A DNA stretch of 23,041 nt from Alloascoidea hylecoeti (Eukaryota). The DNA is taken from the NCBI GenBank assembly GCA_001600815.1, contig BCKZ01000023.1:310001-333041 (forward strand). The letters run 5' to 3'. Below the pieces are notes generated by a model that made no database searches, was not told where the DNA came from, and saw only the letters and a program-made list of their open reading frames with translations. Positions 7,348 through 23,041 of this stretch are shown one piece after another. The stretch's first letter is position 1, and the number at the start of each line of letters is the position of its first letter. The position numbers were made by a program, and so were the translations under genes.

Positions 7348-7670
7348 TGTATTTAGAGATCTTATATAGGAACACATAATATTATTGTCAGTTATATGTG
7401 AGGCAGTATGATTGATGATGTTAAAGAAATATAATCCTTAAAAAGCAGAGTAGTTAATTACCACTTATGGTCGATTAATTTTCCACACGTTCGCTATGTT
7501 TCTATTTTTTTCCTTCAAAAATAACACTGTATTAATTTCAATTGTAGAGTTGGAATCTACATTTTGTTAGTACTGCAAGCTGCTACTTTTCCATTTATTC
7601 CATCAACTCAACCAGTTGGAGCTTGGAACCTACAGTAATTAAAAGCAAAGTAACGGGATTCTTCAGAATG

Positions 7671-8225
7671 CATCTCGATTGACTTTTTAATCAAGTGTTG
7701 TGTTTATTTTGGTTGACAACCTTTTCTCCATCATTGCAAGGTGTAATATATCTTATTAATCTTCATCTTCATAAATATCAATTGCAAATAGATATTTACT
7801 TGTGATCTATTGGAACATCATGCATCCGATGGACCACATTATCACAGGGGTAAGTCCATCCTGTTCCAAGTATAACCATAACCTCAGGAGCTTGATTGAA
7901 ATACTTGCTGAGGAGGAGTTCATTCATATTAATCAAACCATGGCTCTTATTGGTTTTGGTCTGTCTATATTTGAGAGATAAGATCATCCTCAGCAGGTAT
8001 TTCAATCAAGCTCCTGAGGTTATGGTTATATTTGGAACAGGATGGACTTACCCCTGTGATAATGTGGTCCATCGGATGCATGATGTTCCAATAGATCATA
8101 AGTAAATATCTATTTGCAATTGATATTTATGAAGATGAAGATTGATAAGATATATTACACCTTGTAATGATGGAGAAAAGGTTGTCAATCAAAATAAACA
8201 CTTGATCAAAAAGTCAATCAAGATG
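7671..8225. repeat. Long inverted repeat (arms 7671-7914 and 7987-8225, 72-bp spacer)
   Basis: Block-by-block comparison of the arms shows 8 substitutions plus one 5-nt indel over ~240 bp. Confidence 0.97.
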
Positions 8226-8450
8226 AATCCAAAAGCTTTTCGAGACTTTTTTTTTTTTGATTATGATCCAACTAAAATAATAGCAATTGGAGTTTAATGA
8301 TGTAGCTGTAGTAATTGTAGTGATTGCTAAAGAGCAAGGGGTAAATGCTGAACAAAACCTTTCAAAAGAGAGGTTCTTCTAGACTGACATATACTATCAC
8401 ATAGTGGATATGATCACAAACGAGAAGCGATAATACGATTATTTATGGAC
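7935..8450 (+). pseudogene. Fragmentary pseudogene of the divergent CLK/LAMMER kinase (subdomain VII towards the C-terminus); part of it is mirrored on the minus strand at 7671-7914
   Basis: Frameshifted pieces are collinear with the 20561-21928 kinase: ALIGFGLSIFE (TLIDFGLAVLE), HPQQV, NQAPEV, GTGWTYPCD, MWSIGCMMFQ, HLVMMEKRLS, FDYDPT, SKERF. It carries stops and indels. Both ends are approximate. Confidence 0.88.
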
Positions 8451-8769
8451 CGCCTTTCTACCTATTAATGGCGCTATTTACGAAAATAATTAGGGAAAGT
8501 CTGAGAGTTACTTCGCTATATTTTTGTAAATTAGAATCGTATTTAGCGATCTGCCTGGATAAGTTGTACTTCTCACTGTTCTCAGACAATTAACTAGTGA
8601 TGTGTGTCAAATATAATATCGACTCTGCTGAAATTAGATTACCCAGACATTTGAAGATTAATTAAAAAGAGAACACAATTAGCATTGTGCCAATATTTTT
8701 CTTTCGTGACTTAAACTTATATAGTAATGGCTTACCCAACTCTAGTTTTTGTACATTCTCAATTTTATC

Positions 8770-9733
8770 ATCCTAGTAGGTACCAGTTGTTGCATCATCA
8801 CCATAATTTGGTTTTAATACCATCGATATCTTATCAATATTACATTTCTTGTAATAGTCCGATAAGATACTTGGGCTGATCATTAACTGGTAAATAGAAG
8901 AACCTCGAGCTCTAATATCTTTTGATCTCAGAAATCATAATTAGACATAAAACCAGTAGTACAGGCACATGAGAAAATTCCAAAATAATGAAGACAACCA
9001 GTAAGACTGCTTAGAACAAAGAATAAGTTATAGAAAATCTTAAGGTTGACAGACGAGAAATAGATTGATAGCAGTCGGAATGAGTGAAGGCAAACGAATG
9101 GCCCACAGACAGCTAAATAATACCCCTATATTGAAAATGTTTTTGAAGTATTTAAACATAGATTTCCCTAATTTAATATAATAACAATCTCAAAGAAGTC
9201 ATAAGCACTTCTAGATTATATCATTATTTCAGTACCTTCCAATAAAGATCATCAGAATTATTCCTAACATGATATACAATATATTTTGCAACAATAAACT
9301 TAAATAAAATTAAACAATGAAATACGCCAACAACTTTAAACTCAATTAACTTTAAATTACTTGCAGTTACTGATTTTCTTGCAATGACTTGATAAACCAT
9401 AGCTAGCGGCGTAGCCGCTGGTGAGATCACAAAAGCTATAGATAAAGGTAGTGATGATTACGTTCAATTTTTTTCTTTATAACTTCGTTAAATAAGATAT
9501 CAAACATTTATACGTGTAATTAGCAGAAGTCATATACATGAATACCACAGGTTATTATTAATGGGGATACAAAGTCAACGTTATTCATTCTCTAAATTCC
9601 ACTTTACTGTGCTCTCAAATGGTGAAATAACTTGAATAGTCACCAATTTAGGAAAACTCTATATACAGATCGAGACATCATCTCTTTTTTATAATGAACT
9701 CCTGCAATTTCACTTCATAATCAATACAGCCAT
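8770..9733 (-). pseudogene. Heavily decayed MFS sugar-porter (Lac12/cellodextrin-permease-like) pseudogene
   Basis: Collinear remnants in different frames: VVFMYMTSANY (TM1-like), KVVGVFHCLILFKFIVAKYIVYHVRNNSDDLYWK (TM5 and loop), LHYFGIFSCACT and ISEI..KDIRARGSSIYQL (post-TM10 SEI..RARG motif). Recognised by eye only; boundaries approximate. Confidence 0.5.
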
Positions 9734-10641
9734 TATTTAATTTCATCCGCCAGACACTAATGTTCGGCCGTGTTGATAAATAATTGCAGGACACTCCTTC
9801 ACTTATTAATCATTTAAAAATTTCAAACTATAAGTTATAGGCCTTACATAAGTCTGAAAACTTACCATAGAGTGTAGAAAAAGTAATAGGTTAAGGGGTG
9901 GCTGATAATCTGTAACGAGAAAGCCGAACATTTAGTGTATCAAATAAACATATATTTAGTTTGGAAAATGCCGAATATACAGCCAACATATGGCCGAAAT
10001 TAAGTGTAGTGGCTATATTTAAACTTTGAATGCGTCACAAATATCAACTAGCATCATTTACAATTTTCAATTCATATCCGACTCATCCCATAAATTAAAT
10101 GACCCATTTGGCCAATAACAAGAAGGCTATAGTAATACAAAATTACAATGAAGAGCTACTCGTGAGATCCCACCAGTAATATGTTAGCATATCATAATCT
10201 ACAATAATCTACTGGGAGTAATTATGATATTGTTTAATTATAGCCAAACTGGCGTAATATGCATATAATAATTATAATATCAAGCCATCTTCTTGATGAT
10301 AATACAATATAATGACCTCATATATTTGTAATGCAGTTGTAAGCTCCAATTGTCTGGTTGAAAGAATAAAATACACATATAAAGTATTTATGATAAATTT
10401 TTATAACTTTTATAGGCCTATATGTATAGTAACATTGTATACCTATATTCTAGACGATAAGTAAAAATCAAAGCTGTAGTTGCTAGGAACATCTACAAGT
10501 TAAACCAAGGAATTATGTATGATTGTATGATGAAGAAGTATAAATAAATACCCTTTAAATATTTAAAAGAGAAGAGCCATACGATCCGCAATATTGTTTG
10601 ATGAGATTGACCAATAAGAAGTTAAGTATTAATAAGCAGTT

Positions 10642-11110
10642 TCATGTTCTTCTTTCTCTTCTGGTGATGACCCCTAAGGTATACTCTAAATCTATTATGG
10701 AATAAAATTAATATTGATGCCTTATTCCATTAACACGCCGTACCAACAGTTGTAGAAGTATAAAGAAACGTACCTGGAACAATTACAACTTCATAGTTAG
10801 ATGTTGTAACCCTTACCAAATTCAATGGATCACCATGGTGCTTGTTGTCTGTAGGTTCAGCGGCATCTATATTATCTGAATCATTTGGCTCAAAACCAAC
10901 CCTGCTCAATTGCTGTGCCTGTAGAACGAGCTGTTTCGCGTGGTTTATGAAAATGAGAAGATCCTTTTCATTGACAGTAGCTGAAAATATCTGTCGATGA
11001 ATAGTAGACAGATCATCAGACGAAAGGACAAAAAGCGCAAGTAGAGGCTTGTTCGAGGAAGATACCAATTCGTTTATCTTAGTCTCGTACGATGGGGTAG
11101 CTACAGACAT
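10642..11110 (-). CDS. Roadblock/LC7-family protein (dynein light chain roadblock-like); 2 exons, 128 aa
   Basis: join(11110..10774, 10691..10642); 82-nt intron GTACGT...TAG. Splicing gives the C-terminus DPLNLVRVTTSNYEVVIVPDLEYTLGVITRR, matching the roadblock pattern D.L..LR.RT...E..I.PD..Y.L.V. Confidence 0.75.
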
Positions 11111-11340
11111 ATTTGGCCCAAAATGCAAAAGGAAGGTGCAACGGTCGGAGGCAAAGTGTATGGGTGTGATCGCCGCTTCATATTCCTTGAAGCAAGATAA
11201 ACTTTAAATATCGGGTGATTTTAGGCTTCGAAACTTACGTTTAAATTTAATAAGGAAAATATATAAGCCACCAAATATCGTGCTTTTTTCTTTCGTTAAA
11301 TATATTTCTTCAAGAACATAAAAATAAACAATATAAAAAT

Positions 11341-11511
11341 ATGGCCGCTCACAAACTCATCACTAGATCGTTTACATCAGGAACTCAAAACTCTATGAAG
11401 CGATTAACATCTAAATATATCACACTTGCATATTTAACCCTCGGTATTACAGTTCCCTTTGCTCTGCCTCTGAAAACAACACTGGAGAGTCACAATGAAC
11501 AAAGGAGGTGA
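11341..11511 (+). CDS. Putative 56-aa single-pass microprotein, possibly mitochondrial
   Basis: ATG in A-rich context (AAAAATATGG), with TATATAA ~80 bp upstream. Sequence MAAHKLITRSFTSGTQNSMKRLTSKYITLAYLTLGITVPFALPLKTTLESHNEQRR has a basic, acid-free N-terminus and one hydrophobic segment. Not in the ORF track; no family recognised. Confidence 0.5.
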   Translation: MAAHKLITRSFTSGTQNSMKRLTSKYITLAYLTLGITVPFALPLKTTLESHNEQRR

Positions 11512-12218
11512 GACTCTTCATGCTTAAGTGAAGTACTTTTTCAAATATGGACTCAAATATGAACTCAACATTTTCATATTTTATTCTTATGTTGCATTAT
11601 GGCGCTGCAGTGCAGGTCTTTCGTTTTGATATAATATAATGGCGCATGTTTATGACTATCTATATGGATCACTACAATAGGTTTTATTTATCGCAATTGT
11701 TTCTTGTTTTGGTTTTTATCCTTCCATGGTGGATTGAGTTTGATTTATTGCAAACGGAGTTTCTTTATAAAGCCTATGATTATAAAGATGTTAACTATTA
11801 TATAATTAACTCTATTCATGAAAATAATAAAAATGGCCTGATAATCTTTCTTTCATAAATACTTCTTAATTTTTTAATAAATTCATATGCATGTTAGATA
11901 TTTGACAAAACCAACTTAAGCCCTTTGATTTTAAATCCGGGATATAAAAAAAATAAACTACGAGTAGCTTTTATTATCGAGATGGAACAAAGATATATTG
12001 AACTGTAACAAATGTTCCCATTTATTTTTAACTTTACGTATAATTTCAATTAATTATGTGTATTCCGCCTAAGGTTATTCTTTCTATAAGTTCTTGCAAT
12101 TGACTTATCTTTCTTCGTTATCTCTTCATTTGTTCCTTTAGCTTGACTTTTAAAAACAAATTTCGCATACGGTTGCATATAAATGATCCAAAAGAAGAAA
12201 GAATTTCATAAAAGCAAA

Positions 12219-12292
12219 GGTCTCTTGGCCCAGTTGGTTAAGGCACCGTGCTAATAACGCGGGGATCAGCAGTTCGATCCTGCTAGAGACCA
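12219..12292 (+). tRNA. tRNA-Ile (anticodon AAT/IAU)
   Basis: 74-nt cloverleaf GGTCTCT...AGAGACCA, anticodon loop CTAATAA, T-loop TTCGATC, Pol III terminator TTTTT at 12295-12299. Confidence 0.98.
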
Positions 12293-12299
12293 TCTTTTT

Positions 12300-12700
12300 C
12301 TAGATCCCTATTTCTTCCTCTGTAAAAAGATCCCAGCAGTTTTTTCATCCTGCTTCAGTACTCTTTTTATTACGTTTTTCTGGCCAATCTGGAATAATGG
12401 GGTTCAGTTTAGCCTTAATGGCCACTTCAAAAAAAAAAAAGTTACATAAATCTTGGAAGGGGTTTGAAAACAACTTTTTTTTGGTTTTTTTTATCACACT
12501 CTTATTATCAACTGTCACATTATCTTATTCTCAATTTATTGATATTAATCTTATCCATTCCTAACCCACGTTTCATTTACTCACACTTATTTATCCTTCT
12601 TAACTTTATGACTTTACTTCTTATTACACACATTTTCTATTTATCCGTTTTGACATAAAGAGAACTAATATTGCCGCTCATTTATAAATCAACATAGCTA
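12300..12700 (+). mobile_element. Possible degenerate LINE 3' end just downstream of tRNA-Ile copy 1
   Basis: An ATG-less open frame contains LFITFFWPIWNNGVQFSLNG, resembling the L1 ORF2 terminal W.IW..RN...F motif. Weak, single-motif evidence. Confidence 0.3.
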
Positions 12701-13019
12701 TTAATAAAATACAATTCATGTCATCTTTGACTTCCAATAGTTCTACCCCAACTTCTTCCAATGGTGGCGGAGCTACCATTTCAGGTAGTTAATACTCTGT
12801 ATTGATATTATATAACATTGACTTTACAAATAATGATTCTACACAGCATATAATAACAATACAAAATATTAACTACCTGAAACCTACTATCCTAGCCTTC
12901 TGTTAATTCATCAACAGCTTTCAAATATATATTCTATGTTTTATTATCATCACTTTTATGAAGTGTTCCCTTAGGAGGTATTGGTAATCTATAAATTTCT
13001 TAATATGAATATAGATTTT

Positions 13020-13590
13020 ATATTTACAAAGGGGATGATACCAATAGTACATTGTAGTCACCTTTCCAGATGTCTATGGCTTGCAACTTTATATTCAGAC
13101 AAGCTCTAGCCTTGTAAAGTTGCTAAATCATTGCCATTTGATTGTCTTCAAGAAACAAAACAATCATACAGAAAGTTTGTAGTCCCTCGCCATATTCATT
13201 GGGATTTGATGGATCAGGTTGCTAGGCCTTAGTTCTTGACGTGTTTCTAGAGCTTTTGTACTTATTGACGGTTTAAGGTTCCTTTATAATTTCCTGTATT
13301 TGGGATTTTTTAATGGGCAAGATTGCGTTTGATAGTTCAGTTTAAAAAAGTTTAAAGCTTTTAAGCATTCTCTTACGAATATTATACTAATGATTTGATT
13401 ACGTATAGAATCTTTAATAAGTTGGTCAACATCTGATTTCGAAATAGGTGTTTCTAGGTGGTAGAATCCTTTCCTTATTTTCTTTTCATAATTATGGATA
13501 AAAAGACCTTTATTTTACTTTTTTTTGTACTTAATCATTTTAATGTAAATTGTACTAGCTGATCAATAGCTGAATAAAAAGAATTAAAGA
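13020..13590 (-). mobile_element. Stacked short LINE 3'-terminal remnants
   Basis: Minus-strand peptides KALETRQELR (~13228-13258) and NKGLFIHNYEKKIRKG (~13465-13515) resemble KNGAFIKKALELRKNIR at the end of the 14305-15081 ORF2. 13519-13584 is a diverged copy of the A-tailed 3' end at 13597-13664. Confidence 0.45.
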
Positions 13591-13596
13591 AAAGTG

Positions 13597-14150
13597 TTTT
13601 TTTTTTCACCTAATCATTTTATTATAAATTATACTTGCTAATCTATAAGAGGATAAAAAGAATATTTGAATAATTTTATATATATAACAAAGGTTTAAAT
13701 ACCTGTGTGGTAAAACCAAGTCTGATATCATATCTAATATGATCAACTACTTTATTTGTATTTCAGAATTAATTTATGTTTTTCCATTTTCGCAAACTTG
13801 ATAATTGAAGAGGACTTGTTAAATCAATAGAACTAAAGCGTCTAAGGACCAGTATATTCCATATTACCTCCACAGTAAGGCATATGTGCTTTATAAACTG
13901 AGAATCTTCCAAGGATGGATAAATCAAATCATTCAAGCATAGACTTTTCCAATAAGAGAGTTAAAAATATTGTAGTTTTTATTGGACAGCTATTAAAGAC
14001 ATGTTCTTCCGTTCCAGTACCGTTTTGTAAGCATAGGATACATTTGTCTAACTTACCATTTGATTGATCCACTGCCGGGGAGTCTAATGATGAGTGTGAT
14101 GTCTAAGATTAAAAGGATGTAAAAAATCTACGGACCCCGGATCAATGAAA
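13597..14150 (-). mobile_element. 5'-truncated, degenerate L1-like non-LTR retrotransposon (ORF2 C-terminus + 3'UTR + A10 tail)
   Basis: DPGSVDFLHPFNLRH, a CCHC knuckle KCILCLQNGTGTEEHVFNSCP (13983-14045) and EVIWNILVLRRFS, with frameshifts between them. A-tail at 13597-13606. Confidence 0.75.
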
Positions 14151-14176
14151 TTAAAAATTTAAAAGTTCACAAAAGA

Positions 14177-14250
14177 TGGTCTCTAGCAGGATCGAACTGC
14201 TGATCCCCGCGTTATTAGCACGGTGCCTTAACCAACTGGGCCAAGAGACC
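14177..14250 (-). tRNA. tRNA-Ile (anticodon AAT/IAU), identical to the copy at 12219-12292
   Basis: Exact reverse complement of copy 1, followed by TCTTTT on its own strand. Confidence 0.98.
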
Positions 14251-14304
14251 TTTACGGTTCTTTTTCGACCTTTCATATATTTTACTATTAAATTATATAA
14301 CTAG

Positions 14305-15305
14305 AGAATAGGTGATTTATTAAATAATACCAACCTAAGTTTACACTCAGTTATTCCAGTAAATCCGAGCAATAAGTTTAAAGGGAGATTAATTACATAC
14401 TTGAAAGCGTGGAGAGTAATAATAAATAACACAAAACTAAGAAATATACCAACTACTGAAACGGTACCAAAACTGACAAATGAAGCGTTACAAAAACTGG
14501 TAGAAAACCCAGGAGGAGAAGATATCGAAAAAAGAATAAAAGACATGGAAGAAGAAAACATATCCAAATACTCGATTAAATCAATAAGCCAAAAGTGGTA
14601 TAATAAAAACAAAATTATATTGAAACCAAGCAAATGGATGCAGTTAATTCCGGAACTAAAAAATGAAAATTGGAAGAAATGGTGGGGATTTATCAAAGAC
14701 ACATATAAGGAACACCCTGAGGAGACACAATGGATATATTTCCTCAGCTTGGGATATGTTACTCATATGCTACATCATAACAAAAAAGCAAAACAATGGT
14801 GGCAAAAATCTGATATTTGTAGTTTATGTCGACAAGGTAAAGACGACATATTACATCTATTTGAAGATTGCTCAACAATAAGAATACTAAAGAAGTTGAT
14901 GTTAGGAAGCGAAAGAATTGGGATCAAATTATTGATCATAAATATAGAAGATAACAATATAGAAAAAAATGGGGCTTTTATCAAAAAGGCACTAGAGCTA
15001 AGAAAAAATATTAGATTTACAGGGACACCACCACAAATATTAAATGTGATTGATTGGGGGCGGGGGGATTCTAATATCTAAAAACTTGAAAAAGTAAAAA
15101 ATATCTAAAAAAAAAAAAAATTATTTTAAAGGTGGTCTAGGTACATAAGAAGAGAAGAAAGAAGAGTGTCAAGAATACACAAAAATAAGAAGAATAGAAA
15201 GAGAGGTTTTTATTTCACTATATATAGTAGAGATTTCCTCAGAATTTACATAGTTTCTAGTTATGTAATTTAATTGGAAAATATATGAAAAGTTAAAAAA
15301 AAAAA
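14305..15305 (+). mobile_element. 5'-truncated L1-clade-like LINE (Zorro/Ylli-type): uninterrupted ORF2 C-terminal portion + 3'UTR + A-tail
   Basis: The frame is open from 14305 to the stop at 15081 with no initiating ATG. It includes YLKAW, WKKWW and a zf-RVT-type CCHC motif CSLCRQGKDDILHLFEDC (14818-14871). The purine-rich 3'UTR ends in A11 at 15295-15305. A related second copy lies at 15737-16505. Confidence 0.85.
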
Positions 15306-15625
15306 GATACTGTAAAGTTAAAAAAAAATATTCTATTCCTGAAACACATTTCACAGTTCTTGAAATAGCTCAATTCGGGGATATATACATATTGTATTTC
15401 ATTCTTACCGCACATTTAATATCTTATTATGTTTACTACTTCTAGGACTTTCTATATTAATAGCTGTTAGATTGATCTATATAAACATAAGATGAATCCC
15501 ACTTTAAAGGGAATTAAGTAAGTTTTAATACACTTTTTATCTTGATCTTAATAAGCCGAGTATCTGTTGATTTAGATACCTAAGTAAGTTATTAACTAGT
15601 TCCAACGCTTACTTTACAGTGAGAA

Positions 15626-15735
15626 TGTAAAGGAACTCATTATTCGACTATTCTTTGATTATTATTTCTTGTCTATATTAGGATGTAGTAAAGAAATAAT
15701 AATCAAAGAATAGTCAAATAATGAGTTCCTTTACA
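15626..15735. repeat. Short inverted repeat (45-bp arms, 20-bp spacer, 1 mismatch)
   Basis: 15626-15670 pairs with 15691-15735; the only mismatch is C15645/A15716. Confidence 0.95.
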
Positions 15736-15736
15736 C

Positions 15737-16505
15737 TTTAACCTTTTATATATTTTTTCAATTAAATTATATATATGGTGAAATAAAAATCTCTTTAACC
15801 ATTCTTCTTATTATTTTTGTATATTCTTGATATATCACTCTTCTGTTCTTATATTTCTTTACCTAGACCAAAGTAATTACTTTTTTTTTATTTTTTTACT
15901 TTTTTATTTTTTTATTTTTTGAAAAAAACCCCATTTTATTCTTTTTTCGATATCTTCTCCTGCTGGGTTTTCTACCAGTTTTTGTAACGCTTCATTTGTC
16001 AGTTTTGGTACCGTTTCTGTAGTTGGTATAATTCTTTTTTTTGTATTATTGATAATGGATTTCAAGTATGTAATCAATCTTCCTTTAACTTATTTGGAGT
16101 TAATGATATAACTGAGTCTAAACTTAGGTTGGTATTATTCAATAAATCATCTATCAAAATATTATACCATTGATAATTCAACTCTGTATGATGATTATCT
16201 CTTGAGTTTCCTGATTTTTACTTACTGCTTCCTTTAATTTTGGAGCATACATATGGATTTATATGTTTACATCCCTCTATGACCATAATATCTTTAACTA
16301 ATTGTTGTTTTATCAGTTTAATTATTTTATTTTTTCAAATTCAGCATTGAATTCTTAAAATGGGAACACTAAGATAAGTCAGATTCTTCAGATCTTCTGT
16401 TTTATAATTTAAAGCTGATTTGAATATTCGATCTTCTCTTCTCCTTTGACTTTCATCATTGAAATAAAATTTGTACAATTTTGATTGATTTACTCGCTTC
16501 ATGTC
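15737..16505 (-). mobile_element. Degenerate, internally deleted second copy of the same LINE family, inverted relative to 14305-15305
   Basis: 15934-16155 is a reverse-complement homolog of 14308-14541, and 15737-15930 matches the 3'UTR. About 0.5 kb including the CCHC motif is missing. Further 5' there are late RT-domain remnants MKRVNQSK and LTYLSVPI (the L..N..K and YLG.P motifs). Confidence 0.82.
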
Positions 16506-19200
16506 AATAACTTTCCTCTATGCAACTCGATGCATACAATAGTATGCAAATATTTGGCCTTTTTAATAACAATGGAACATGAGGATTGTGACGGAGGAAG
16601 AGATATTGTTCCACAGAAAAATCACCGCAAAACCAATATATAAGACATCATTATTATCGGAATGTGTCCTCCTCTTCTGTTGTTTTTTATTTGCACCATA
16701 ATTACGGAACTTCAAATATATGACTACCATATACATGTAACTTATAGACCGACAGAATCATTCAAGTTGGTTAACTAATTTGACAGGTTATGTTCATCAG
16801 AAATTACCCTCAAAAGCATCGAAAAGCATTTTCTCGTTCCTTCTCAACGCTAGCTGGCAAGGGTGGGCTTCTGATTCCGAACCGGTTCTAGAAGAATATG
16901 TAGCCTCAACGCCATTATTAATATTTAGTCGCGTATCCTAGTTGAACTCTTGCGTGGTCAACTCTTTCGAACTTTGCGAGTTTAACATTCTTTTTCTTAA
17001 TGTACTGCTTATGTTTGGTCTACTTTATAAAGTTTTCTTTTATGTGGTAGGAAGTTCAAGCTTAGGAAGATATGTTCCACGTTTATATAATTATAAAGTT
17101 TGACTCTAAGTCAATTTGTAATTAATATATTGTAAACCTATTAATACACTTGACCAGTATTATAATTATAAGTAATTAATTGCCAGACTTCCCATAAACC
17201 TATTTAGTATTAGTAGCCAAATGGAGCCACATCCACGTACCTAGTTCTCGCTAAACATTAGGATACTTAAACCTAATGACCAATGAGATGATGGAAGATT
17301 CTTCATAGACATTGGGGCACTGGATAGTCATGGCAAAAGTTTCAACATCAATGTCTGGAAAATTAGAAAACACAATATATATATTAATACTGATTGATAT
17401 GTTTTTATAATTTGAGAAACTGTACTAATACGATGAATTAATTTTATTAACCTAGCTTCTACTGAAAATGACAAGTTTGAAGAAGAAGAAGAAAAAAAAA
17501 CAGCAGAAACTGTTAAAGTCCTGTTCTCCCAGTTGCGTCAAAAATCCAATCGACTCTTTAGTGAACTGTTCTAAGAGTTTAATATATCCAATAGAAACTT
17601 CTAGATTTCCTTTCATATAATCACCCCCTTAGAAATATTTTTTGTGACAGTCGAATTCGAAAATAAGGAATAGGATCCGATCAAGAACTAGAGTAACTAC
17701 TTTCACCAATTGCAATGTATTCACACTTGATGTATAGTACAGTGATTTATACAACCAATTATCCCAGCTTTATAAAATAAATCTATAAACAGTAGAATCG
17801 ATGTTCGCCCACAGAATCATTATGATGAATATTAGAATAGAGTGGTTGTTGGAACGGCTGAGACATCCATGCATCCTACTCAACTAAGAAACAATAAATT
17901 ATTAATATTTGGAGGTGAGCCAAGAAAAGAAGTAATTACACTTGAGTAGTCAAATAATAGATAGGACTATGTGAAACCATACCATCGTTTTAATTGAACA
18001 TTAATTGTGTATACCCGGCTGGGAAAACCTAAGCGCTCTTTTATGTGAGCTTATGTGTACATGATGTGGTAAAATTTTGTATTGTAATTCTATACCATGC
18101 GGTATCAGGATACCCAGTATGGTGCTAAATGGGTACCAATATAGGGCTTCTGGGCTAAGTAATATCCATGATAAAGAGTAGGCAATCATTTTTCACAAAA
18201 AGAAGATATGTGAATCTCAACAACGTTATATGGAAGCTGATATCTAAATCTTATTAATTCTACATGAATTTTAAGAAATTCTATTGCACTTTATTTATTT
18301 GGTACCATTATTTTCAAGATATGGGTCAGACACTTAGATTAATGCAGCGACCAAGTATCGGTATAAGTATCATTACAAAACAAATATTTTCATTAAAGCA
18401 GAAATAATAATGATCCAGCAACATCGTTTTTATTAAACATTAGTTTGAACTTTCGTGTGTTAGATGATAATATTTAGCATTGAAGAAAGCTTTTGATCGA
18501 TGAAAACTAACCTGATTACCTTATAGCGTTGTTGCAAATAACCGGAACTCCATAACAAGGTATATTTCTCAGTCTATCGGTTCCGTTATACCACTGCAGT
18601 TATAAAAAATTAGACTAGTATACCAACCTATTTTACAAAACAAGTACTTGTATCTAATATCTATAGAATTCGCAATCCCTATATAATTAATATTATTAGG
18701 TGTAATGAGCTACAAGTTATATTTATATTATAATACATATACCTTTTTATTGAGACAGCTACATTAAAAATGTGGCACCATACTCGTCACTACTTAAGAG
18801 TGCGACTATTCAATTTACATATAGTCATCCCTCTAATTAATTGGATATCGTTATAAATAGCTAGCCTACATGGTTTTATATGGAAATGGAAGAGAGTACT
18901 CTTCAGCTGAATTGGAAAAGATCCTGAATCAAATTGTCTGTCGCTCTTTAAAAATTGGACTGCTGTTTTCCTGATTTTATTGTAAATATGCTGATTACCC
19001 CGTTGGGTAATTATTCTTTTACCTAGTATTCAAGGAGGTTCTGCGACAAACCTAATTTGCAGACTCAAAAAGCAAAATGCATATGTCAATTTAAAGAAAG
19101 GATATTTGATTATAAGAGTATTGTTATTTGGATTAATCCATGAATAAACAAATAACAATTTTAAATTGGAATGGATTAAAGGAAATCAATAGAATCATTT

Positions 19201-19334
19201 CGAAGGTTCTAGATATCTTTCTATACCTCCGTACACCCGATTGTCGTGATTGAATATTACTTCTAAACTAACCAACTTAGTTAGCTAGAATTTTCTACTT
19301 AGATAGTAGTTTACTTTTGAGATGAGTATATAAA
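19201..19334 (+). promoter_or_regulatory. Heat-shock elements and TATA box of the Hsp20 gene
   Basis: cGAAggTTCtaGAt at 19201-19214, aGAAttTTCt at 19287-19296 and TATATAAA at 19327-19334, which begins 117 bp before the ATG. Confidence 0.7.
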
Positions 19335-19443
19335 GACAGGTTATAGCCCTTAAATACTTATTGGTTTTCATAATAATAATCATACCTTCTTACAATTACA
19401 CATTATTACAAGCAACATAAATATTAAATTATAACAATTATAA

Positions 19444-20560: not shown

Positions 20561-21928
20561 CTAAATTCCCATCGTGAACCATTCATGTTGTAATGCCTCT
20601 TCAGCAGTTATTCTTTTTGAAGGATCAATCGTAAGTAACTTTTTAAGCATATCTTTCATCGAATCTATAAATATGATTTCAGATTGATGTCTAGGTTTCC
20701 TTAAAAATGATGATTTAATTCCATCGAATACCTCATCTATACTTTCAGTTTCTGAAAACCGCTCTTTTGATTGTGACGATGAATCTGTATTTGGGAAATT
20801 TAGAACATATGGAAAGGTTACTCCACTTTCAGTCGGATCATAATCAAATACAAAATACTGAGATGCTTCTGATCTTTTTTGGATTGATTTTGCAATCATC
20901 TTGGGATCTATTTTTTTACTGAGCCTTTTTTCAATCATTGCAAGGTGCACGTCATCCTCATCTTCGCATATATCGAATAGTACTTGGCCAGTGATTAATT
21001 CGAACATCATACATCCTATTGACCACATGTCACAAGGATACGACCATCCTGTCCCAAGGATGACCTCAGGAGCTTGGTTGAGCAGACAAGACACCCTCTG
21101 AGGATGGCCTTCATTTTCCAACACAGCTAAACCAAAATCAATAAGAGTGACAGAAGAATCTGCTAAAAGCTTTCTTTTAGTCATTCCACTATCATGAACA
21201 AAGAATGAATTTGAATTGTTGAGTAATATGTTATCCAACTTCAGATCGGTATGGACTATCCCCGAATTGTGTACAAATGATATGGAACTAATCAACTGCT
21301 CCATCATCGATTGGACTTCTAACAAATTATAAGAACTAGCCATCACAGTATAAGGATTTAGATCATACTGAGTAATAGTTTTAGCCATATATGTATCCAA
21401 GTTGTCCCCCAACAAGTCGGACACAATACATATATGTCCCTTAAATACAAAACAATCTTTAATTTCCATACATCCATTTTGTTTGGATTGACCATCCCGG
21501 GATAGTTTTAATAAAATTCTAATTTCTTTTAAGATATTTAAAATAGTAAACTGTGTATTGTGATTGGAACTTGAAAGTATTGATTTGGATATTTTAATAG
21601 AGACATATTCTTTTGTTTCCGTATCATAAGCAGAAGTAACTCTTCCAAAACATCCTTGTCCCAGAATATTTTGAATTATATATTTTTGCGAAAACACAGA
21701 ACCTTTTTCTATAATATAATGGCCTTCATTATCATCACTGTATGTGTCATTGGTGCTAGTATGAGGGTCGTCTAGTGTTCTGATACTAGTTAATATTGCT
21801 CGAAGTTGAGTTGTTTGGGCATCCTCATCCAGAGTGATCTCATCATATTGCCATTTACTTTTTGGTAATAACTTTATAGCGACTGCCAGTGGAAGTGAAT
21901 CGAAATAATTATTGGAAACAGTAGTCAT
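20561..21928 (-). CDS. Divergent CLK/LAMMER (Kns1/Lkh1-related) protein kinase; 455 aa, intronless
   Basis: DDNEGHY pre-domain motif, LGQGCFG, VSIK, HTDLKLDNILL, DFG, APEVILGTGWSYPCDMWSIGC, VHLAMIEK (EHLAMMER box) and DPSKRITAEEALQHEWF. Confidence 0.92.
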   Translation of the reverse strand: MTTVSNNYFDSLPLAVAIKLLPKSKWQYDEITLDEDAQTTQLRAILTSIRTLDDPHTSTNDTYSDDNEGHYIIEKGSVFSQKYIIQNILGQGCFGRVTSAYDTETKEYVSIKISKSILSSSNHNTQFTILNILKEIRILLKLSRDGQSKQNGCMEIKDCFVFKGHICIVSDLLGDNLDTYMAKTITQYDLNPYTVMASSYNLLEVQSMMEQLISSISFVHNSGIVHTDLKLDNILLNNSNSFFVHDSGMTKRKLLADSSVTLIDFGLAVLENEGHPQRVSCLLNQAPEVILGTGWSYPCDMWSIGCMMFELITGQVLFDICEDEDDVHLAMIEKRLSKKIDPKMIAKSIQKRSEASQYFVFDYDPTESGVTFPYVLNFPNTDSSSQSKERFSETESIDEVFDGIKSSFLRKPRHQSEIIFIDSMKDMLKKLLTIDPSKRITAEEALQHEWFTMGI

Positions 21929-22224
21929 TTTCGGAGATTGATTTTAGTTAATTAGAAACAAATTTATTGTCTAATTGTATGTGGCTCTAAATAATATATT
22001 ACTATTTGAGCTCTCTTTTGAAAGTGCGAAATAGAAAGGATGGAGGAGTGAAAAGATTTTCATACTTAATCCGGGCTAATAATGAGAGTATGATAGTTAA
22101 AGATTCCTAATTAATCATATGCTGATATATTGATCTTCGAAATGGTTCTATCGATGAAGTTCTTGATTCTATGTGCAACCTTCTTGTTTGGGTTTTAGCT
22201 TTATATATGCATACTGTTATATCT

Positions 22225-22251
22225 TATGCATATGCGCACACACACACACAC
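22225..22251. repeat. 27-nt alternating purine-pyrimidine tract including (CA)7 in the palindrome spacer
   Basis: TATGCATATGCGCACACACACACACAC read directly. Confidence 0.9.
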
Positions 22252-22514
22252 TCAAACAAGAAAGTTGCACATAGAATCAAGAACTTCATCGATAGAACCA
22301 TTTCGAAGATCAATATATCAGCATATGATTAATTAGGAATCTTTAACTATCATACTCTCATTATTAGCCCGGATTAAGTATGAAAATCTTTTCACTCCTC
22401 CATCCTTTCTATTTCGCACTTTCAAAAGAGAGCTCAAATAGTAATATATTATTTAGAGCCACATACAATTAGACAATAAATTTGTTTCTAATTAACTAAA
22501 ATCAATCTCCGAAA

Positions 22515-23041
22515 ATGACTACTGTTTCCAATAATTATTTCGATTCACTTCCACTGGCAGTCGCTATAAAGTTATTACCAAAAAGTAAATGGCAATATGA
22601 TGAGATCACTCTGGATGAGGATGCCCAAACAACTCAACTTCGAGCAATATTAACTAGTATCAGAACACTAGACGACCCTCATACTAGCACCAATGACACA
22701 TACAGTGATGATAATGAAGGCCATTATATTATAGAAAAAGGTTCTGTGTTTTCGCAAAAATATATAATTCAAAATATTCTGGGACAAGGATGTTTTGGAA
22801 GAGTTACTTCTGCTTATGATACGGAAACAAAAGAATATGTCTCTATTAAAATATCCAAATCAATACTTTCAAGTTCCAATCACAATACACAGTTTACTAT
22901 TTTAAATATCTTAAAAGAAATTAGAATTTTATTAAAACTATCCCGGGATGGTCAATCCAAACAAAATGGATGTATGGAAATTAAAGATTGTTTTGTATTT
23001 AAGGGACATATATGTATTGTGTCCGACTTGTTGGGGGACAA
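22515..23041 (+). CDS. Second copy of the divergent CLK/LAMMER kinase (5' part; cut by the window edge)
   Basis: ATG at 22515; translates MTTVSNNYFDSLP...HICIVSDLLGD, identical to the first 175 aa of the minus-strand copy. Absent from the ORF track because no stop is reached. Confidence 0.9.
   Translation, partial: MTTVSNNYFDSLPLAVAIKLLPKSKWQYDEITLDEDAQTTQLRAILTSIRTLDDPHTSTNDTYSDDNEGHYIIEKGSVFSQKYIIQNILGQGCFGRVTSAYDTETKEYVSIKISKSILSSSNHNTQFTILNILKEIRILLKLSRDGQSKQNGCMEIKDCFVFKGHICIVSDLLGD

Follow-up and report, generated by a model that had tools for sequence, protein, structure and literature searches.

Does a yeast LINE choose its insertion sites by tRNA genes? The question is raised by a cluster of LINE pieces around one of two tRNA-Ile(AAT) genes in the window analyzed here, by which we mean the whole stretch of 23,041 nucleotides. 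It is textbook knowledge that yeast LTR elements with an integrase, such as Ty1 and Ty3, target Pol III genes. The earlier note on this DNA had read the cluster as convergent tRNA-gene targeting by at least two LINE families.

LINE pieces around the second tRNA-Ile gene

An Rfam scan of the window gave 17 listed matches, two of which reached the gathering score, and both were tRNA. The two tRNA genes are 100% identical and form an 83-nt inverted repeat (I3) made of the gene, 3 nt upstream and 6 nt downstream. Five 3'-terminal LINE pieces surround copy 2: A, B and C belong to family 1, and D and D' to family 2. The features are, by position:

12021-12056, minus strand: G, a weak, possible 3'-end remnant of family 1, at 165-200 nt on the upstream side of tRNA copy 1
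12219-12292, plus strand: tRNA-Ile(AAT) copy 1 (ARAGORN; Rfam tRNA, 56.4 bits)
13519-13597, minus strand: D', a second family-2 3' end of 79 nt with an A8 tail, stacked on the tail of D (direct repeat D2)
13597-13606, minus strand: A10 tail of D (T-runs)
13607-14158 (about), minus strand: D, degenerate family-2 LINE, ORF2 C-terminus and 3'UTR (profile, tblastn)
14177-14250, minus strand: tRNA-Ile(AAT) copy 2 (ARAGORN; Rfam)
14258-14305, minus strand: C, family-1 LINE 3'-end stub filling the gap between tRNA copy 2 and A (local alignment; blastn)
14305-15305, plus strand: A, 5'-truncated family-1 LINE (ORF, phmmer, E 3e-24 with a distant-relative profile), consisting of the ORF2 C-terminus (14305-15081, 258 codons, open), the 3'UTR (15082-15294) and an A11 tail (15295-15305)
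15306-15328, plus strand: second tail-like unit behind the tail of A, 14 nt ending in GTAAAGTT and then A9; GTAAAG follows the A-run, as likewise in B and C
15619-15742, no strand: near-perfect hairpin with 60-nt arms and a 4-nt loop (repeat I4, 88%)
15737-16154, minus strand: B, older family-1 copy, inverted relative to A and lacking roughly A's 14597-15080

By sequence comparison, the pieces at 12.2-16.5 kb are assigned to two families of L1-like (APE-type, CCHC-tailed) non-LTR retrotransposons. Two features of the L1-like class were found in them: 1) the CCHC motif that follows the RT, and 2) a 3' poly(A) with variable 5' truncation, the tails being A11, A10 and A8 and the element start point differing among A, B, C, D, D' and the copy in protein P0006 described below. 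Every piece in the window comes from a LINE 3' end and lacks the RT-coding part, the N-terminal endonuclease is likewise absent from these truncated copies, and the RT was seen only in distant relatives, as RVT_1 in P0012 (1.2e-30) and P0016 (4.3e-33). P0016 also contains zf-RVT, for which the matches of the window pieces themselves, D included, were weak (E 0.047 and 0.022), and its best solved-structure match was human LINE-1 ORF2p (2.8e-37). Exo_endo_phos in P0012 scored 23.1 bits, just below the cut-off of 24.5 bits, and an RNase H family was listed for neither protein. Searches found no full-length member and no ORF1 of family 1.

With the 258-aa ORF of A as query, phmmer found 16 proteins at E<=1e-3 among 1.84 billion representatives. 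Among them were P0012 (1140 aa, E 6.5e-9) and P0016 (1245 aa, E 2e-4), both colinear with A, and the motif CX2CX8HX4C in the ORF2 C-terminus of A aligned with the same motif of P0016. The 3'UTR of A has an A14 run inside, and its 3' end was set by alignment with B and C. B matched A by blastn at 79% over 289 nt (E 3e-64) and at 75% over 155 nt, and its ORF at 15907-16089 matched the family profile (E 3e-8); its 5' part may extend to about 16480, judging from a single match to P0012 aa 890-968 at E 0.067. C aligned with the 3' end of A (15243-15303) with a local score of 37, which none of 2000 shuffles and none of 914 background windows reached, and by blastn it was 80-82% identical over 56-61 nt. 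Since the ORF of A is open in spite of a 3'-end divergence of about 20% from C, A and C probably represent separate events at one tRNA gene. Stub C, in the gap between the tRNA gene and A, and the inverted copy B were both absent from the earlier description. The hairpin lies directly behind the 3' end of B, and its miRNA-like Rfam matches were sub-threshold.

Downstream of copy 2 a different LINE had been proposed, and D bears this out. Its coding part is spread over three frames and carries the motif CX2CX9HX4C. The three minus-strand ORFs (14087-14158, 13932-14102 and 13772-13960) held ranks 2-4 of the 1216 window ORFs, just after A, with a profile built solely from distant relatives; they are colinear at profile positions 144-161, 177-205 and 219-253, and P0015, P0013 and P0016 gave colinear tblastn matches. 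The claim that further 3'-end remnants are stacked behind this LINE stood for one of them, D': on the plus strand, a T8-10 run closes each of the 79-nt units 13598-13676 and 13519-13597, whose similarity is 75-80% (75% as direct repeat D2; 80% over 66 nt, E 2.6e-10).

No confirmed LINE piece, and none at -55, was found in the flanks of tRNA copy 1 by blastn, profile and local-alignment searches, and the LINE suspected just downstream of this gene was not recovered by the first two. Piece G reached a local score of 23, which was equalled in 11 of 500 shuffles and 2 of 320 background windows. All confirmed pieces lie within 13.5-16.2 kb of the 23-kb window; no match at E<0.1 occurred outside 13.7-16.5 kb, in agreement with the earlier view that the genic 0-7.4 kb have no LINE remnants.

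Distance and orientation to tRNA genes at two loci

The 5'-truncated LINE that had been noticed upstream of copy 2, its 5' end facing the tRNA, corresponds to A, which begins 54-57 nt upstream of the tRNA 5' end (14250) on the opposite strand. This TRE5-like position hints at tRNA-gene targeting by a yeast LINE, a proposal that is only partly supported. A second, independent locus was provided by P0006 (159 aa), the sole match among 671 candidates of the 141-452 aa class. As far as can be read from the protein, by which alone the locus is known, an antisense tRNA-like stretch is followed by about 56-59 nt of unrelated DNA and then by family-1 LINE from residue ~165 of A. The tRNA was read by degenerate back-translation: the fit of the T-arm and acceptor was equalled by 1 of 300 shuffled peptides and that of the full cloverleaf by 4 of 200. 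In the cloverleaf solutions of 84-87 nt, 56-59 nt lie between the tRNA 5' end and the LINE, and a 108-nt solution leaves a 35-nt spacer. No LINE was found in any frame of the first 95 residues. We rejected tRNA-Ile as the identity of this tRNA-like gene. An inverted LINE end was also rejected for the spacer: 60, 42 and 90 of 200 shuffles reached the observed scores, in a test whose positive control gave 111.6 against a shuffle maximum of 16.2. With modest confidence, the P0006 locus appears to have the geometry of A at another tRNA and with another truncation point.

The TRE5-like distance was found at 2/2 loci with a readable family-1 5' junction and flank (A, 54-57 nt; P0006, 56-59 nt in the registers that agree with a cloverleaf), these being the only two loci with the -55 geometry and the window having been chosen because of it. 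Family fragments in the protein database are mostly without flanks, and metagenome scans made towards mapping LINE copies relative to tRNA genes found nothing. The antisense orientation is shared by A and P0006 but not by C and B, which lie on the strand of tRNA copy 2. Against a sharp rule, C abuts the tRNA gene with its 3' end, its short A-run and GTAAAG end pointing to the 5' end of copy 2 from 0-10 nt, and B was about 0.5 kb away from copy 2 before A arrived. Family 2 near a tRNA gene is a single case, D, whose 5' end lies 19-34 nt downstream of the 3' end of copy 2, both being on the minus strand. The earlier note was right on the LINE identity, on there being two families, and on distances and orientations. 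Because of the misfits of C and B, the LINE-free copy 1, this single case and the stacked tails, we do not uphold convergent targeting by at least two families.

We give a chance just short of even to the reading we prefer, a graveyard of dead 5'-truncated LINEs around tRNA copy 2 in which family 1 was steered by the Pol III complex. Two families would have built the pile in at least four or five separate events of target-primed reverse transcription. Family 1 would be guided in its integration by the RNA polymerase III complex that sits on tRNA genes, to a point close to where TFIIIB ends on its upstream side, like TRE5 of Dictyostelium and NLTR-B of Polysphondylium. The older copies C and then B would have come first, upstream of copy 2, and the young copy A, with its ORF still open, would have inserted later at -55, within C. 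Resident poly(A) tails may have offered additional entry points, to D' at the tail of D and likewise at the doubled tail that follows A. The nesting of the pieces was observed, as were their identity and placement and a second locus of like geometry, and the Pol III cue, the sequence in which the copies arrived and a targeting role of family 2 are inferred.

Other routes to the same arrangement

The pile could also have grown with no Pol III targeting, if the endonucleases prefer A/T runs, including earlier poly(A) tails, and each tail seeds further insertions; these would persist in gene-free DNA near tRNA genes because they are harmless there. D' sits exactly on the tail of D and a second tail unit lies behind that of A, and this tail-on-tail stacking fits a poly(A)/T-run preference. 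A/T runs of at least 8 nt number 10 in 12219-16505 (2.3 per kb), the four remaining stretches have 0-0.8 per kb, one stretch of 12 kb in the window is without a recognizable gene, and B, C and D have no common geometry. Integration at poly(A) tracts is described for Zorro3 of Candida albicans, with poly(A) on both flanks and no reported preference for chromosomal regions in the account cited first (PMC7175516, PMC3956500). However, such a preference does not predict two independent 5' junctions 54-59 nt upstream of different tRNA genes in the same orientation. Since the window is about 70% A+T, a taste for AT alone gives no reason to favor tRNA flanks, and the longest A tract in the window (A20, 2574-2593) is empty of LINEs. 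Unlike Zorro3, A has no same-strand poly(A) in its 5' flank (14251-14304), which holds the complement of C's short A-run. On balance we regard this explanation as unlikely.

Less probable still is that tRNA copy 2 was no target but came as a passenger, copied back from a tRNA-Ile transcript by the LINE RT, the adjacency being the by-product of a chimera. Two routes could lead to it: 1) twin priming and template switching, which in one step would have linked A to stub C and to the tRNA in antisense, or 2) a template switch from the RNA of D to the pre-tRNA. The GTAAAG family-1 end abuts the first tRNA base without an ordinary leader, and the identity of the tRNA copies ends in a T-run 6 nt past the gene, where termination of a Pol III transcript would be expected. 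The heptamer AAAAGAT lies directly left of the tRNA and again where the tail of A ends, as a duplication around a unit of tRNA, C and A would, whereas A alone has no target-site duplication (no common flanking run >=6 nt); yet beyond the A-run this putative duplication is informative at just three bases. Nor is a direct chimera expected to leave the spacer of P0006, where about 56-59 nt, neither LINE- nor tRNA-like, separate the tRNA and the LINE. A34-to-inosine editing is known for tRNA-Ile(AAT), and the unchanged anticodon AAT speaks weakly against an edited RNA template. Mammalian tRNA/LINE-1 chimeras, mostly antisense, have been ascribed to twin priming, but they mostly carry half tRNAs, as far as that source describes them, and copy 2 is full-length (PMC13174262). 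Two chimeras in roughly 15 known family fragments would also mean a rate far above that of the 21 tRNA/LINE-1 chimeras given there for the human genome (PMC13174262).

That the repeated pieces reflect a local inverted duplication or an assembly error is very improbable: A and B are inverted and the window is rich in palindromes (7668-8228, 12779-12882, 15619-15742 and 21402-23041), but A and B are just 75-86% identical with a deletion of about 480 nt, a divergence like that of unlinked family members, the flanks of C, A and B differ, and 62-81% of the words sampled from 11800-16800 are present in contigs of four runs from three studies, the best holder of which may be the source sample.

Known elements and meaning

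TRE5 (TRE5-A of Dictyostelium discoideum) inserts 40-54 bp upstream from the mature tRNA in opposite orientation and NLTR-B of Polysphondylium pallidum 39-64 bp upstream, and the table of a 2018 review gives tRNA-targeted non-LTR elements for dictyostelids only (PMC5911963). Both are APE-type non-LTR elements like those described here, the ORF2 C-terminus of TRE5 is a zinc finger, and A and the P0006 locus match TRE5 in distance and orientation. In contrast, our host is an ascomycete of yeast type and not an amoebozoan, the loci are two, and B and C break the rule; the likeness to TRE5 is one of behavior and not of clade. D recalls Dictyostelium TRE3 in lying downstream of the tRNA on the same strand, but the usual range of TRE3 is 40-150 bp as against 19-34 nt, and D is a single case from a different LINE family.

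Among budding-yeast elements, Zorro3, Ylli (Yarrowia) and Ace, Bri and Can (Scheffersomyces stipitis) are L1-like LINEs with many 5'-truncated copies and poly(A) ends, a likeness drawn from descriptions and not from sequence. The poly(A) preference of Zorro3 fits the stacked tails (PMC7175516), whereas A lies 55 nt from a tRNA gene with no poly(A) tract at its 5' flank; clear target-site duplications are reported absent in the accounts of Zorro3 and Ylli. Ty3 and Ty1 of S. cerevisiae, Tyl3, Ylt1 and Tyl6 of Yarrowia, and DGLT-A and NLTR-A of dictyostelids also integrate just upstream of Pol III genes, and the positions of NLTR-A (2-6 bp) and Ty3 recall the 3' end of C at 0-10 nt (PMC5911963). 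However, all of these except NLTR-A are LTR elements that use an integrase and no target-primed reverse transcription. Mammalian tRNA/LINE-1 and U6/LINE-1 chimeras similarly join a small Pol III RNA to a truncated LINE 5' end (PMC13174262); copy 2, by contrast, is a whole tRNA gene that shares its sequence with a neighbor, and at P0006 unrelated DNA lies between the tRNA and the LINE.

If neither targeting nor a passenger tRNA holds, the locus is an ordinary transposon graveyard. With a passenger tRNA, a yeast LINE would have produced an additional, intact tRNA gene, an initial stage on the way to a SINE. Tentatively, and with somewhat less than an even chance, we propose that an L1-like family of a budding-yeast-type ascomycete reads the Pol III complex and carries out target-primed reverse transcription about 55 bp upstream of tRNA genes, in antisense. 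The TRE5 strategy would then have been invented here independently, and the family would be the first non-LTR element outside Amoebozoa to target tRNA genes, with family 2 perhaps at a TRE3-like downstream position. If a yeast LINE has the TRE5 geometry, target-primed reverse transcription would have become linked to the Pol III complex two or more times, in widely separated eukaryotes whose genomes are compact. The targeting mechanism would then come within reach of yeast genetics, because marked-element assays like those described for Zorro3 already exist (PMC7175516).

The gene-free stretch and its tRNA genes

The G+C content is about 30% across the whole window, which is gene-dense except for a 12-kb stretch at 7.4-19.4 kb where no recognisable gene or Pfam domain was found. 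The genes are eukaryotic and intronless in appearance, and encode a HECT ligase, a Cys/Met PLP enzyme (a fission-yeast protein is among its two best solved relatives), a Rad60-SLD protein (its nearest Atlas clusters are mostly from Ascomycota), an Hsp20 and two protein kinases. The host is taken to be an ascomycete whose compact genome is of the yeast type. Two tRNA-Ile(AAT) genes were located in the gene-free stretch, and no further Pol III-type RNA gene reached the Rfam gathering score in the window. The two tRNA copies are identical over 83 nt, a stretch that covers the gene plus 3 nt before it and 6 nt after it.

tRNA genes and LINE pieces of the window (coordinates, strand, description)
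12219-12292, plus: tRNA-Ile(AAT) copy 1, ARAGORN and Rfam in agreement
14177-14250, minus: tRNA-Ile(AAT) copy 2, ARAGORN and Rfam in agreement
14305-15081, plus: ORF of LINE piece A (14305-15305), 258 codons stop-to-stop, ORF2 C-terminus, family 1
15737-16154, minus: LINE piece B, family 1; against A, 79% over 289 nt and 75% over 155 nt
14258-14305, minus: LINE piece C, reverse complement of the last ~50-60 nt of a family-1 3' end
~13607-14158, minus: LINE piece D, family 2

LINE pieces and tRNA genes account for only about 2.5 kb of the 12 kb (7400-19400). Among 36 ORFs of the remaining non-coding DNA at 7.4-19.4 kb, none matched a transposon-type Pfam family and three gave weak, unrelated Pfam matches below the cut-offs (E 0.018-0.039).

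Several inverted structures were also observed. A palindrome of 1.64 kb at the right end (21402-23041, centre ~22221) is 98% identical to its own reverse complement and sets two copies of one protein-kinase gene start head to head, 20561-21928 on the minus strand and 22515-23039 on the plus strand; the inverted duplication may be genuine, or the assembly may have folded back on itself at a contig end. The arms of a second palindrome (7668-8228) are ~89-97% complementary and, since their DNA is 66-68% similar to a segment (20827-21147) from the interior of the kinase gene, this palindrome resembles a decayed inverted kinase pseudogene fragment. Two hairpins of unexplained origin, both with sub-threshold miRNA-like Rfam matches, lie at 12779-12882 (35-nt arms) and at 15619-15742 (60-nt arms, 4-nt loop). 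The latter is placed directly behind the 3' end of piece B, and each of its arms starts with TGTAAAG, a motif that also follows LINE tails.

Two families of L1-like elements

In a full HMMER search against 1.84 billion representatives, the ORF of A matched 16 proteins at E<=1e-3. Of these, eleven (63-159 aa, 45-86% identical) are short fragments from A's own family and four are distant LINE proteins, namely P0012 (1140 aa), P0016 (1245 aa), P0015 and P0013; P0014 (2780 aa, SpaA repeats) was discarded as an unrelated repeat protein. P0012 carries RVT_1 and a near-threshold endonuclease match; P0016 carries RVT_1 and zf-RVT and has human LINE-1 ORF2p as its best solved relative (2.8e-37). Residues 986-1185 of the 1245 in P0016 align with A, including a CX2CX8HX4C motif. 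Based on this alignment and on the domains of the relatives, A corresponds to the C-terminal fifth of an L1-like ORF2. Downstream of the ORF there is a 3'UTR with an internal A14 run, followed by an A11 tail at 15295-15305. The ORF is open across 258 codons in DNA of 70% A+T and exceeds every ORF of the same family in the protein databases (the longest has 159 aa); copy A may be either young or under constraint. No full-length family-1 member was found in the protein searches, which returned nine short fragments, one protein in the near-length class and no longer relatives. In metagenome scans, a pattern from a single protein matched 94 stretches, none of them confirmed, and a degenerate DNA pattern gave five loci, all chance matches of 9-14 residues.

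Piece B lacks about 480 nt present in A; its extension to ~16480 was dropped, its sole basis being an E value of 0.067. Piece C, absent from the earlier note, occupies the entire interval from tRNA copy 2 to A. Aligned locally with the 3' end of A, it scores 37, a value not reached in 2000 shuffles or in 914 background windows. In A, B and C alike, the A-run is followed by a short motif ending in GTAAAG, which in C directly abuts base 1 of tRNA copy 2. The possibility that one twin-priming event produced C and A together from a single RNA was rejected, given that C differs by ~20% from A's 3' end, yet the 258-codon ORF of A is still open; for the same reasons A probably arrived later than C.

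The second family was found with a profile built from distant relatives only and run on the 1216 ORFs of the window. This profile ranked A first (3e-24), and ranks 2 to 4 were adjacent minus-strand ORFs (14087-14158, 13932-14102 and 13772-13960), colinear along the profile, which we assign to piece D. The middle ORF contains a CX2CX9HX4C motif and an A10 tail closes the piece. Directly on this tail lies D', another 3' end of 79 nt that shares 75-80% identity with that of D and ends in A8. The region 13380-13518 behind D' was rejected as a family-1 end, since 98, 145 and 464 shuffles out of 500 reached its scores. Immediately behind D' (13480-13518) and again in C (14255-14290), the words AGTAAAATA and AAAGGTC follow each other in identical order on the same strand, with a non-significant shuffle test; the junction position is curious because the two occurrences would bracket the block formed by the tRNA, D and D'. 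No LINE-like match at E<0.1 was detected in the window outside 13.7-16.5 kb. By descent the pieces belong to the L1-like group, which also includes the yeast LINEs Zorro, Ylli and Ace/Bri/Can, and the likeness to these is drawn at this level only.

Placement of the pieces and a second locus

The LINE pieces adjoining tRNA-Ile copy 2 are real and were well described in the earlier note. A starts 54-57 nt upstream of the tRNA gene and antisense to it; D starts 19-34 nt downstream, on the strand of the tRNA; and C, also on that strand, has its 3' end aimed at the tRNA from 0-10 nt. Before the arrival of A, the 3' end of B would have been about 0.5 kb upstream of copy 2. At the flanks of copy 1 there is no confirmed LINE, and the further element suspected just downstream of it found no support in piece-to-piece comparison or in the profile search. 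The A12-ended stretch at 12293-12440 has no similarity to any LINE piece, and a seven-residue match (FSLCQNG, 12644-12664, minus strand) is a lone word between stops without a profile match. A possible family-1 end at 12021-12056 is weak, with a score reached by 11 of 500 shuffles and 2 of 320 background windows.

A second family-1 locus is represented by P0006, a protein of 159 aa from a 3.9-kb contig that matches A from A residue ~165 onward. The 95 residues before its LINE part are not LINE in any frame, nor antisense tRNA-Ile. These residues were back-translated to degenerate DNA and then reverse-complemented. The resulting sequence holds a T-arm with the T-loop consensus and a matching acceptor stem, equalled by one of 300 shuffled peptides. 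A stricter search for a complete cloverleaf gave 12 solutions; among 200 shuffles, 23 gave any solution and four scored at least as high. In the solutions of 84-87 nt, 56-59 nt separate the tRNA 5' end from the first LINE codon, and in a 108-nt solution the spacer would be 35 nt. Just beyond the tRNA 3' end, two lysine codons would give the tRNA strand a T-rich run resembling a Pol III terminator. The spacer showed no likeness to an inverted family-1 3' end (scores reached by 60, 42 and 90 of 200 shuffles), whereas in a control with the same test the LINE part of P0006 scored 111.6 against a shuffle maximum of 16.2. Thus, a second independent copy seems to share the position and orientation of A, next to another tRNA, truncated at another point and with a spacer of unrelated sequence. 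This locus, read from one protein and no DNA, is the main support for targeting. Of the earlier proposal of tRNA-gene-targeted LINEs in a yeast, the geometry of A seems to recur at one independent locus, and the positions of C and B do not fit.

Possible Pol III-directed integration and alternative readings

We tentatively prefer a reading in which integration of family 1 would be directed by Pol III to about -55, antisense to the tRNA gene. This reading fits A and P0006 and would explain why A, the later arrival, came to lie within the earlier C at 55 nt from the tRNA; the positions of C and B are unaccounted for by it. A preference for poly(A) or AT runs, combined with tolerance of insertions in gene-free DNA, appears doubtful. 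It would suit the stacking of D' upon D's tail, the two successive tails that follow A, the poly(A) habit known for Zorro3 (available text of PMC7175516 and PMC3956500) and the local excess of A/T runs of at least 8 nt, ten of which lie in 12219-16505 (2.3/kb vs 0-0.8/kb in the other four stretches). However, such a preference does not predict the repeated distance and orientation, and an A20 tract between two genes (2574-2593), which should be ideal for a LINE in search of poly(A), is unoccupied.

It is rather improbable that tRNA copy 2 is itself a LINE-borne retrocopy, in spite of the LINE end in contact with its first base and of the identity between copies 1 and 2, which stops inside a T-run. 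AAAAGAT is found at both outer junctions of the unit formed by the tRNA, C and A, while A alone has no duplication, and antisense tRNA/LINE-1 chimeras ascribed to twin priming are reported in mammals (available text of PMC13174262). Yet tRNA copy 2 is complete, the putative duplication offers just three informative bases outside the A-run, and the spacer DNA at the P0006 locus is unrelated. An origin of the LINE pieces by duplication or assembly artefact is very improbable, since the copies have diverged from one another, and 62-81% of sampled words of 11800-16800 are present in contigs of four runs from three studies.

Under Pol III-directed integration, the closest systems to A by behaviour are the Dictyostelium element TRE5, inserted 40-54 bp upstream in opposite orientation, and NLTR-B, at 39-64 bp (review table in PMC5911963; also available text of PMC5006619), and the junctions of A and P0006 match this placement. 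TRE3 is the closest system to D by behaviour; the TRE3-like position of D is a single case and targeting by family 2 is not claimed. The available text of the open full-text literature (PMC5911963, PMC5006619, PMC7175516, PMC3956500, PMC8546629, PMC5014426) lists tRNA-targeted non-LTR elements only for dictyostelids and, in yeasts, tRNA targeting only for LTR elements. The available text of the S. stipitis and Yarrowia papers describes LINEs without a link to tRNA genes. With several loose ends and one independent supporting locus, the interpretation of tRNA-gene targeting is a good hypothesis.
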